This document shows positions 39,101-42,100 of a stretch of 51,787 nucleotides of DNA, piece after piece. Positions within the stretch are counted from its first letter, which is position 1. Each line of letters starts with the position of its first letter. The DNA comes from Vulcanimicrobiota bacterium (lineage in GTDB: Bacteria > Vulcanimicrobiota > Vulcanimicrobiia > Vulcanimicrobiales > Vulcanimicrobiaceae): assembly GCA_003135555.1 (NCBI GenBank), contig PLCF01000030.1, forward strand, positions 1-51,787, in the 5' to 3' direction. Position numbers: made by a program.

Positions 39101-42100
39101 GGGATCGTGGCCCATGCTTCGACGGGGCTCAGCATGACAATAATGGGCTCGGGGTTGTCCCGAGCTATGCCGGTCACAAGCTATGTCGGTCGCTTGTCGA
39201 TCGGCTCGGGCTGTGGTAAAGTAAGCCGTTGTGTCCGGCCGCGGACGCGACGCGCGTTCGCGCGCCCACCGCATTCGCCGTGCGGGTGGAAAACGAGGTC
39301 GGACGTCGAGTGAGATGCTCGCGTGCCGGTCGAGGCGACGACACCTGGCCGCGCCGGGCAAGATAAACCACCAGAGAGCAGTTTTCTTTTGGCCGCGAAG
39401 AAGCAAACCAAGACGCGCAAGAAGCGCGAGTTCAAAAACGTCGGATCGGGCGTCGCGCACATTCACTCGTCGTTCAACAACACGATCGTGACGATCACCG
39501 ACAACACCGGTTCGACGATCGCCTGGGCCTCGGCCGGCAACCTCGGCTTCAAGGGCTCGAAGAAGTCGACGCCGTTCGCCGCGCAGATGGCCGCTGAGGC
39601 CGTCGCGCGCAAAGCGATGGATCACGGGATGAAGACCGCCGAGGTCTACGTCAAGGGTCCCGGGGCCGGGCGCGAAGCCGCCATTCGTTCGCTGCAGGCC
39701 GCCGGTCTGGAGATCACGCTCATCAAAGACGTCACGCCGATCCCGCATAACGGCTGCCGCCCGCCGAAGCGCCGTCGAGTGTAAGGGAGTTTAGAGAAAA
39801 AGATGGCCCGTTACACCGCAGCCGTGTGCCGCCTGTGCCGCCGCGAAACCGCGACGTCCAAGACCGGCGAAAAGATCAAGCTCTTCCTCAAGGGCGACCG
39901 CTGTCTGTCCAAAAAGTGCGCCGTCGAGCGNNGGCCGCCAGCTGCGCGAGAAGCAGAAGATGCGCCGCTACTACGGCGTGCTCGAGACGCAGTTCCAGAA
40001 CTACTTCCGCGAGGCTCAGCGCGTCAGGGGCAAGACCGGCGCGACCTTCTTGCAGATCCTCGAGCGCCGGCTGGACAACGTGATCTACCGCCTCAACCTC
40101 GGCGCCAGCCGCGCGCAGGCCCGGCAGCTGGTCACGCACCGCCACTTCCGCCTCAACGGCCGCATCATCAACGTGCCGTCGATTATGGTGAAGCCTGGTG
40201 ACGTGATCTCGATCGCCGACCGGTCGAAGTCCAAGGATCTGTTCGGCGCGCTCGTCGAGACCGCGAAGAACCGCCGCCATCCCGAATGGCTCGAGTTCAA
40301 CGAGACCGATGCGACCGCCAAGGTCGTCGCGCTCCCGTCCCGCGAGCAGATCGACACGCCCGTCGACGAACAACTCATCGTCGAGTACTACAGCCGCTAA
40401 TCCACTAACACCAACCCCACCAACCGTTAGGCGTGCGATCGTGGCGCACCCTTCGACAAGCTCAGGGTGACAAGAGGACCTGGGCTCGTTCGCGGGACTG
40501 CGCTGCGGATAACGTAAACGGAGAAAGACTCAACGAAATCAGTATGACCGTTCTTGAAGCGCCGGCCGGCGCAAACATCGAAGTCCGCGAGCGCCGCGAG
40601 AACTTTGCCAAGTTCGTGATCGAGCCGCTCGAGCGCGGCTTCGGCATCACGCTGGGCAACGCGCTGCGCCGCGTGCTCCTGTCGTCGATCCCGGGCGCCG
40701 CCGTGACCTACGTGAAGATCGACGGCGTGCTCCACGAGTTCTCCACCATTCCAGGTGTGGTCGAAGACACCGTCGACTTGCTGCTCAACCTCAAGGGCCT
40801 TCCGATCAAGCTCAACACGGAAGATCCCAAGGTGCTCTCGCTGCAAGTCAGCGGCTCAAAGGAAGTCACCGCCGGCGACATCGCTCCCGATGCCGACGTC
40901 GAGGTCCTCCAGCCGACCTACCACATCGCGACGCTGTCGAAGAAAGACGCGAAGCTGTCGATGGAGATCGGCATCGAGAAGTCGCGTGGATACGTCACGT
41001 CCGACAAGCAGCGCAACATCGAGCACATGATCGGGCTCATCCCGATGGACTCGATCTTCTCACCGATCCGCAAGGTCAACTTCAGCGTCGACGATACCCG
41101 CGTCGGTCAGTCGGTCGACTTCGACCGCCTCACGTTGGAGATCGAGACCAACGGCTCGATCACCCCGGACGACGCGCTCTCCGAGGCGGCTCAGATCCTC
41201 ACCGAGGAGCTGCGCTTGTTCATCGGGTTCTCCACCGAGGAGAAGCCGGTTGCAACGGCGCCCGCCAGCGAGTGGGACGTGCCGGTCGAGACGCTGAACC
41301 TGTCGGTCCGCTCGTTCAACTGCCTCAAGCGCGCCGGCATCTCGAAGGTCTCGGAGCTGCTCGACATGACCGAAGACGAGATCATCAAGATGCGCAACTT
41401 CGGCAAGAAGTCGCTCGACGAGATCAAGCAGGTCTTGGAGGAGCGGGGACTCTCGCTCCGCCAGGCTTAGGTAAGGAATCATGCCGCATCAGCTCGCCAA
41501 CAAGCGTCTCTCGCGCACCGACGGCCACCGCAAGGCGCTGCTTCGCAACCTCGCCACGTCGTTCTTCAAGTACGAGAAGATCGAGACCACGTCGGTCAAG
41601 GCCAAGGAGATCTCCAAGGTCATCGACCGCCTCATCACGCAGGCGCGCCGCGGCGATCTCCATTCCCGGCGGCTCGCGGCCTCGTACCTGACCGAGGAAG
41701 CCGTCGCGAAGAAGCTCTTCGAGCAGATCGCGCCCGCGCTCAAGGATAAGGCCGGCGGCTATACGCGCATCACCAAGACGCGCGTCCGCCCCGGCGACGC
41801 GGCCGAACTGTCCATATTGGAGCTCGTAAAGTAGCGCTCTAGCAATTCTCTCGGTCGCTGGCGTCGTCGCTACGCCCCTCACGTGCCCTAGCACGCTTCG
41901 GGGCTAGGCTCCTAGCCAGCGACCGAGATAATCGCTAGAGTAGGGGCTACCCTCCTATGCTAGTCACGGACGAGCCGCTCAGTCTGACCTCCATTACGCG
42001 ATCGTTCGTCGCGGACAGCATCACGCCGATCTCCGCGTACCTCGCCCTGGCTCAGCCGGGGCGTTCGTGTATGCTGGAGTCGGTGGAGGGAGCCGAGCGG

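Follow-up and report, generated by a model that had tools for sequence, protein, structure and literature searches.

A conserved and apparently undescribed RNA hairpin at the start of rpoA in the Vulcanimicrobiaceae

An irregular RNA hairpin with an invariant core precedes rpoA across the bacterial family Vulcanimicrobiaceae, and appears to be a real, previously undescribed, family-wide motif at the start of this gene. It gives this family of soil bacteria a 60-nt module that is dedicated to the rpoA start and strongly conserved, and that we read, with somewhat more confidence than doubt, as a protein-bound translational operator for rpoA and rplQ. In agreement with the first-pass annotation, Rfam 15 gave no match either for the whole window (the complete stretch of DNA analysed, 51,787 nt) at gathering score or for a 121-nt insert-free homolog at E<=10, and no description of the motif was found in a literature search that left subscription journals largely outside.

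Gene neighborhood of the element

The element lies in a short run of genes on the forward strand:

39389..39784, + strand: rpsK (S11), with a probable UUG start, the first gene of the split operon
39803..40400, + strand: rpsD (S4), full length, broken solely by a scaffold gap (NN at 39931-39932)
40544..41470, + strand: rpoA, RNA polymerase alpha subunit
41481..41834, + strand: rplQ (L17), 10 nt past the rpoA stop, the only ribosomal protein gene downstream of the element

An rpsM match at 13823-14140 is situated 25 kb upstream of these genes, and the alpha operon is therefore split. The rpsD stop ends at 40400 and the rpoA ATG is at 40544, which bears out the 143-nt spacer reported earlier; the earlier suggestion that S4 begins upstream of its called start also proved correct, the ATG being at 39803. 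The scaffold gap within rpsD corresponds to 61 letters in contigs of relatives, and the reading frame is kept. An S4 paralog was considered and set aside, as a single S4 copy is seen in 5/5 genomes. No intrinsic terminator was found on the + strand, and the rpoA-rplQ spacers of the family loci examined measure 8-66 nt. The L17 N-terminus (41481-41500) reads MPHQ across the family and MRH in the families f2 and f3 and in other classes. Upstream of rpsK lies an apparent toxin-antitoxin pair (RES-domain and Xre-type, judged from the translations) beside another copy of a CGTC-tagged repeat (38055-39017 on the - strand, and about 39100-39140).

Anatomy of the hairpin

Folding, covariation and family-wide occurrence together confirm the conserved RNA structure that had been proposed at 40424-40521 between rpsD and rpoA. 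This segment forms one irregular hairpin (-45.3 kcal/mol, z -3.59; 0/200 shuffles as stable), with the opposite strand folding more weakly (z -1.97) and the entire 146-nt stretch 40401-40546 being unremarkable (z -1.45). From the base upward it comprises P1 (5-7 bp) closed by a U-A pair, an A.A pair, a G.U pair accompanied by one bulged purine, P2 (C-G, G-C, U-A), a 4x3 internal loop, P3 with U.G, C-G and G-C at its base, and a free apex. These parts are arranged along the sequence as follows:

40424..40428, + strand: 5' arm of P1, partner 40517-40521, pairing kept and sequence free
40429..40434, + strand: A.A (or G.G) pair with 40516, G.U with bulged purine, and P2, with changes mapped on a tree
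40435..40441, + strand: two free nt and an invariant GA on the 5' side of the 4x3 internal loop, then an invariant UCG at the base of P3
40442..40505, + strand: variable apical stem-loop, 64 nt here and 11-88 nt across the family
40506..40521, + strand: 3' strand, with invariant CGGAUAAC followed by GUAA and the 3' arm of P1

The core consists of 15 invariant nt, GU-NN-GAUCG facing CGGAUAAC, framed by covarying stems and the free apex. All 15 are unchanged in 67/67 copies from loci chosen by rpoA alone, and show 0 inferred substitutions over a tree length of 10.6, as against 13-27 in the adjacent apical columns. A degenerate copy outside this 67-copy set (L155 of G281, 2441-2500; 39 bits) alters three of the 15 core nt, with A.G and G.A replacing two otherwise invariant pairs. 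RNAalifold prefers G40430 as the partner of U40515 and our hand-set structure used G40431; both fit the covariation.

The covariation claimed by the first-pass annotation was recovered in our own alignment of 60 insert-free copies with the hand-set structure, in which 89.8% of cells are paired versus 78.5% after shuffling, and two-sided changes are seen at 13/19 pairs versus 8.9. None of 500 shuffles reached as high on any of the five pairing measures, and slid registers pair only 31-51%. As kin inflate shuffle-type counts, pair changes were also mapped on a tree of 66 loci. This tree is short (about 520 nt) and weakly resolved, and the event counts are therefore approximate. In this tree-aware test 11/14 tested pairs exceed the branch-length null in same-branch double changes (p<=0.0025); the three without excess are one apical pair and the two pairs at the outer end of P1. 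Examples of the observed and expected counts are 8 versus 1.5 and 11.5 versus 2.8 in P1, and 4 versus 0.2 in P2. Within P1, 3-12 same-branch double changes fall at each of the four variable Watson-Crick pairs below the U-A, and 2 at the U-A itself. The non-canonical pair behaves similarly, the exchange of A.A and G.G mapping to about 4.5 branches versus 0.38 expected, and the CG-to-AU change in the 40429..40434 segment with P2 to 4 of 4. The alignment excludes seven copies, namely six with a long apex and L003, whose core duplicates that of L002. L025, which lacks S4, was excluded from the tree test, and L039 of family f3, a 5-mismatch pattern match to which the covariance model gives no score, was dropped. 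The loci L026, L027, L118 and L119, from four genera on separate branches, have the same four bases changed in the lower helix (G.G with A-U), which suggests coupled changes, transfer or poor resolution of the tree.

The invariant 3' strand might alternatively double as a sigma-70 promoter for rpoA-rplQ, with TAACGT as the -10 element, a GC-rich discriminator and a start about 7 nt further on. The invariance of the TA in TAACGT and the common occurrence of a pyrimidine-purine step 7-8 nt downstream would fit such a role. We consider it improbable, given that about 9% of 120 copies have C or G for the final T of TAACGT; 7 changes are inferred there, and 4 of them share a branch with a G-to-A change on the opposite strand. 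Moreover, the -35 position would lie within the free apex, the discriminator and the 5' arm of P1 covary, the 5' strand is equally invariant, and no promoter was called in 39000-42000.

Phyletic distribution

Among loci picked by rpoA and blind to the motif, the element is found upstream of rpoA in 67/68 from the family and in 0/62 from the phylum's other families (upstream sequence was lacking at one of these 62). A covariance model built from 60 copies matches 141/151 Vulcanimicrobiaceae genomes, representing 75/78 genera, with one strong copy per rpoA, and 0/80 genomes of other families in the phylum. This tally includes 13 unpublished genomes (12 matched, G319 unmatched) and stands at 129/138 without them; none of the 13 entered the alignment or the model. 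The ten unmatched genomes comprise G037, in which the element is present with an exceptionally long apex, two with rpoA at a contig end, six without an rpoA match, and G211, which represents a true loss. The order-wide occurrence implied by the first-pass annotation was accordingly not upheld, the element being restricted to the family and missing from the sister family f2 at 3/3 loci. In G004, the single f2 genome examined for this, a 0.6-kb rpsM-rpsK gap and an rpsK leader occur without the rpoA element, and the operon split alone is therefore an insufficient explanation for its presence.

The matching loci are assigned to Vulcanimicrobiaceae, Baltobacteraceae, Velthaea, Lustribacter, Cybelea and Rubrimentiphilum. 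A GTDB-wide pattern scan gave at least 120 stretches; among the 80 matches listed, 70 precede a family-type rpoA, some of them under other taxon names; the remaining 10 show no hairpin fold and score 14-23 bits, versus 39-78 for true copies, and were rejected. The element was absent from 5/5 genomes of other phyla picked by their pattern matches, and seven pattern matches on viral contigs (best 20 bits) were likewise discarded. Four weaker second matches were fetched, of which three lie inside open reading frames and the fourth was read as flanking sequence only. In 5 genomes searched at E<=5, no further copy stood in front of another gene such as rpoB or rpsM.

The single true loss coincides with that of a second RNA feature of the operon. 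The rpsK leader core GAGGCGACGACA (about 39270-39388) is present in 31/31 family loci and in G004, and absent from G211, from 26 f3 loci and from 23 loci of other classes. This leader also contains an RGAUAAA word; the rpoA-element model gives no match there. G211 (L162) is nested within the family (supports 0.98-0.99) and lacks both the element and the rpsK leader; its rpoA has an ordinary Shine-Dalgarno (SD) sequence 5-7 nt from the start, the long spacing described below being gone, and a near-consensus promoter lies close to its rpsK. Its L17 shows changes at 4/65 near-invariant columns, one of them Arg to Cys, versus 6/423 in alpha, S4 and S11 (post hoc p 0.03). The 23S rRNA match of G211 spans 3690 nt, compared with about 3070-3120 in three relatives, which suggests that it contains insertions.

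Relation to the rpoA start

The element keeps its place relative to the start of rpoA rather than the end of rpsD: the distance from core to AUG is 21-35 nt in 120/120 distinct copies, about half of them found by a pattern scan in which the core is preset, versus a range of 8-387 nt for the distance from the rpsD stop. Two further features connect it to the start codon:

40522..40527, + strand: AGAAAG, an SD-like word (AAAGGA in most genera) with complementarity to the very 3' end of 16S rRNA (G001), abutting P1 and 16 nt from the AUG
40528..40543, + strand: long A/C-rich spacer between SD and AUG (A+C = 1149/1428 nt in such spacers)

This spacing is unusual. In 88 of the 100 AGGA-bearing copies, among 120 examined, the AGGA lies 12-16 nt before the AUG. 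The norm of this genome is 4-8 nt, as seen in 15/19 such words upstream of 128 unambiguous starts, and 14 hand-picked element-free loci place an SD-like word 2-11 nt from the rpoA start. Spacer sequence can alter translation up to 100-fold (PMC7264876). No base-pairing of the SD is present in the consensus fold, and its sequestration by the 5' flank, also considered, is unsupported by conservation.

These relationships bear on a model in which the hairpin acts without a soluble ligand, as a ribosome-facing enhancer or insulator that docks on the 30S platform or halts ribosomes leaving rpsD. The element abuts the SD, the long A/C-rich spacer is kept and lost together with it, and such a device would give rpoA independence from S4 control, as is the case in E. 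coli (PMC10931766, PMC3616713). An insulator, however, requires stability and not 15 invariant nt, and the 14 hand-picked loci above show rpoA served by a plain SD in other lineages. We therefore regard this model as rather unlikely.

Downstream, rplQ is without an SD-like word in 18/33 family loci, which would be consistent with its translational coupling to rpoA. This coupling argument is weakened by the element-free family f3, in which rplQ is similarly SD-poor (17/28) and the rpoA-rplQ spacers are also short. Ten f3 loci (L041, L043, L045, L046, L048, L049, L051, L052, L056 and L057, with L045 and L049 from unpublished genomes) display a separate peculiarity, in that their 74-77 nt "spacer" is an in-frame N-terminal extension of alpha by 25-26 residues. 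Its ATG overlaps with the stop of rpsD, which implies that alpha is translationally coupled to S4.

The apical insertion

The apex of this copy is 64 nt long versus about 20 nt typically, giving about 44 nt extra, close to the insertion of about 45 nt described previously; the earlier count of 21 genomic occurrences for the 12-mer TTCGACAAGCTC was reproduced exactly. The insertion contains a palindromic repeat:

40442..40472, - strand: inserted CGTC/TGTC-tagged REP (Ssn-related motif), with TGTC tag, 8-bp imperfect stem, 5-nt loop and CCA tail

It displays the hallmarks of this repeat class, namely a CGTC/TGTC tag, a stem of 8-9 bp, a loop of 4-5 nt, a CCA tail and many intergenic copies, an anatomy that was described for CGTC-tagged REPs (PMC3733652). 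Its second stem pair is C-G, versus the A-T type in other copies. In all, 74 relaxed copies are present in the genome, 16 of them with a GATCGTGGC-like flank; this usual flank resembles the element's own GAUCGU, and on the strength of that resemblance the repeat probably entered the hairpin by microhomology. Nuclease genes of the Ssn type are flanked by such repeats (PMC11893778), and the repeat occurs beside small GIY-YIG genes in G037, G119, G211 and G001; no such gene was found in this genome (G000, 84% complete). The likeness to CGTC-tagged REPs and Ssn-related motifs (PMC3733652, PMC11893778), which extends over tag, stem, loop, tail and the GIY-YIG flanking in relatives, is confined to the insertion, and the conserved element differs from them.

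REPs occupy the apex in four distinct copies including this one, and the upstream part of the rpsD-rpoA spacer in two more; the 88-nt apex of G037 bears the same repeat. As related repeats lie in three other apices and in both orientations, the apex is free and the repeat a passenger. L194, a fifth apical pattern match, proved not to be a repeat. A different palindromic repeat family lies between the rpsD stop and the element, close behind the stop, in several genera, at loci L002, L005, L007, L010, L011, L100, L110, L126 and L127. The frequent invasion of the rpsD-rpoA spacer by REPs raises the prospect that the entire hairpin is a functionless leftover of such repeats. For the core this is refuted by covariation, distribution and the tree-aware test, and as a general account it is extremely improbable, since the element occupies one position in single copy in 141/151 genomes, has invariant loops on covarying stems, and is repeat-free in most copies.

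Functional interpretation

The combination of invariant loops on freely covarying stems with covarying non-canonical pairs points to a recognised three-dimensional surface, and the hairpin's fixed position with respect to the rpoA AUG points to a role at rpoA initiation. In the protein-bound operator that we favour, the invariant internal loops would form the binding surface for one protein, which upon binding would hinder or trap the 30S subunit at the rpoA start, where a weak SD stands far from the AUG. Hindrance or trapping is preferred over melting or masking of the SD because the latter is unpaired in the fold. Control of rplQ along with rpoA would follow from the probable translational coupling of the two genes. 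Of the two roles raised by the first-pass annotation, protein binding fits better with 15 positions free of substitutions, and processing fits less well. Its further proposal that the element sets rpoA apart from the ribosomal protein genes holds for a cis role at rpoA; the setting apart itself is unsupported, and the element may instead tie rpoA to L17, given that rplQ follows closely and often has no SD-like word.

Processing nevertheless merits separate consideration, in the form of a signal for RNase III or another nuclease that frees the rpoA-rplQ message from that of rpsK-rpsD or sets its stability. RNase III sites are present between rplL and rpoB and at T7 R1.1. The helix of about 20 bp with an asymmetric internal loop would suit RNase III, which is encoded in 5/5 genomes tested. 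The enzyme is also found in the element-free G211, f2 and f3, and 15 invariant nt exceed what it is known to require. A contig from an RNA library of a relative runs intact through rpsD, the element and rpoA, which is a weak sign of read-through, as DNA in the library is possible, and a weak point against cleavage, as contigs cannot reveal ends. On the whole a processing signal seems unlikely, notwithstanding the precedent of an intercistronic RNase III site at rpsO-pnp (PMC3082872).

If a protein binds, L17 is the leading candidate, though a tentative one. It leads because of operon logic, L17 being the sole downstream ribosomal protein, and because rplQ is often without an SD-like word. The former corresponds to the "Only" ligand rule in Table 1 of PMC7247131, and ribosomal protein leaders (r-leaders) are usually lineage-restricted (PMC3616713). 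The alpha subunit or a core-assembly intermediate is a less probable ligand, and a similarly modest chance falls to S4/S11 or another protein. Were alpha or an assembly intermediate to bind, rpoA would be under autogenous translational control with L17 carried along by coupling; the hairpin would then serve a polymerase subunit as its RNA operator and would not be an r-leader, which would fit the absence of rRNA mimicry.

No such mimicry above chance was detected against the family's own 16S and 23S rRNAs. The best ungapped match was 13/15, reached by 8/30 (16S) and 19/30 (23S) shuffles, and the best gapped score was 14.6 versus a null mean of 15.4 in 300 structure-preserving shuffles, a comparison at sequence level with a distance limit. 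We discounted partial likenesses to 23S H101, 16S h23 (S11), h8, h16 (S4), h21 (S8) and the peptidyl-transferase loop; H101 fell outside the top ten. Not all r-leaders mimic rRNA (PMC7247131, PMC3616713), and this result therefore lowers the likelihood of a ribosomal protein ligand without excluding it. Further points count against the operator reading. The SD is unpaired in the consensus fold, the joint loss in G211 is a single event, and repression of alpha by a ribosomal protein runs counter to E. coli, in which alpha escapes S4 control (PMC10931766).

The tuning of rpoA inside a ribosomal protein operon and the control of L17 are unsettled even in E. coli (PMC10931766). Natural controls come with the element, namely the loss in G211, the sister families without it, compensatory variants and an insert-tolerant apex. 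As a member of the family is in culture (PMC9758169), both ligand and mechanism are directly testable.

Comparison with known systems

An r-leader has a covarying structure that lies upstream of a ribosomal protein gene and is co-transcribed with it. The element has the structure, rplQ is the second gene downstream, and co-transcription is no more than hinted at by contigs. The alpha-operon leaders compared here precede rpsM, rpsD or rplQ. Among them is the L17-Actino-Proteobacteria leader (Eckert and Weinberg 2020, PMC7247131), also an alpha-operon hairpin with L17 as the only downstream ribosomal protein gene. It regulates rplQ directly, whereas the element here sits before rpoA. The first 23 published rows of that leader keep CCGGUAC/GGCCGG with a bulged A, in contrast to the open internal loop of GAUCG/CGGAUAAC in the present hairpin, in which few positions vary more than the one matching the bulged A (54% A; 20 changes inferred).

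The protein L17 contacts 23S H101, although no paper confirming these contacts was found in a search with subscription journals largely outside its reach. The CCGGUAC/GGCCGG of the published leader matches the base of 23S H101 (L137 23S). Its published rows resemble a circularly permuted base of H101; PMC7247131 does not mark them as an rRNA mimic.

The S4 leaders, namely the E. coli alpha-operon pseudoknot and those of Firmicutes, Fusobacteriales, Clostridia, Bacteroidia and Flavobacteria, belong to the same operon, are likewise lineage-restricted and share the word GUAA with most copies of the element. They precede rpsM or rpsD, and not rpoA. In the Firmicutes and Fusobacteria leaders a conserved GUAA lies 5' of a stem, whereas here it is base-paired within the 3' strand, and 17/120 copies have another word in its place, the variants being GCAA, GGAA, UUGA, GUAG and GUGA. 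The kink-turn consensus has a 3-nt bulge followed by tandem G.A/A.G pairs. The invariant GA of the element follows U-N-N, and in no register does the opposite strand provide the two tandem pairs together with canonical stems.

Two other systems share the intercistronic setting. Sites for RNase III such as that of rpsO-pnp are also long irregular hairpins at the junction of a ribosomal protein gene and a non-ribosomal gene; the invariance of sequence is far stricter here. The L20-Deltaproteobacteria leader (PMC7247131) likewise lies between two genes of an operon, preceding a ribosomal protein gene where the present element precedes a polymerase subunit gene. Taken together, by place and anatomy the hairpin would act in the manner of an r-leader while standing outside every family tested.
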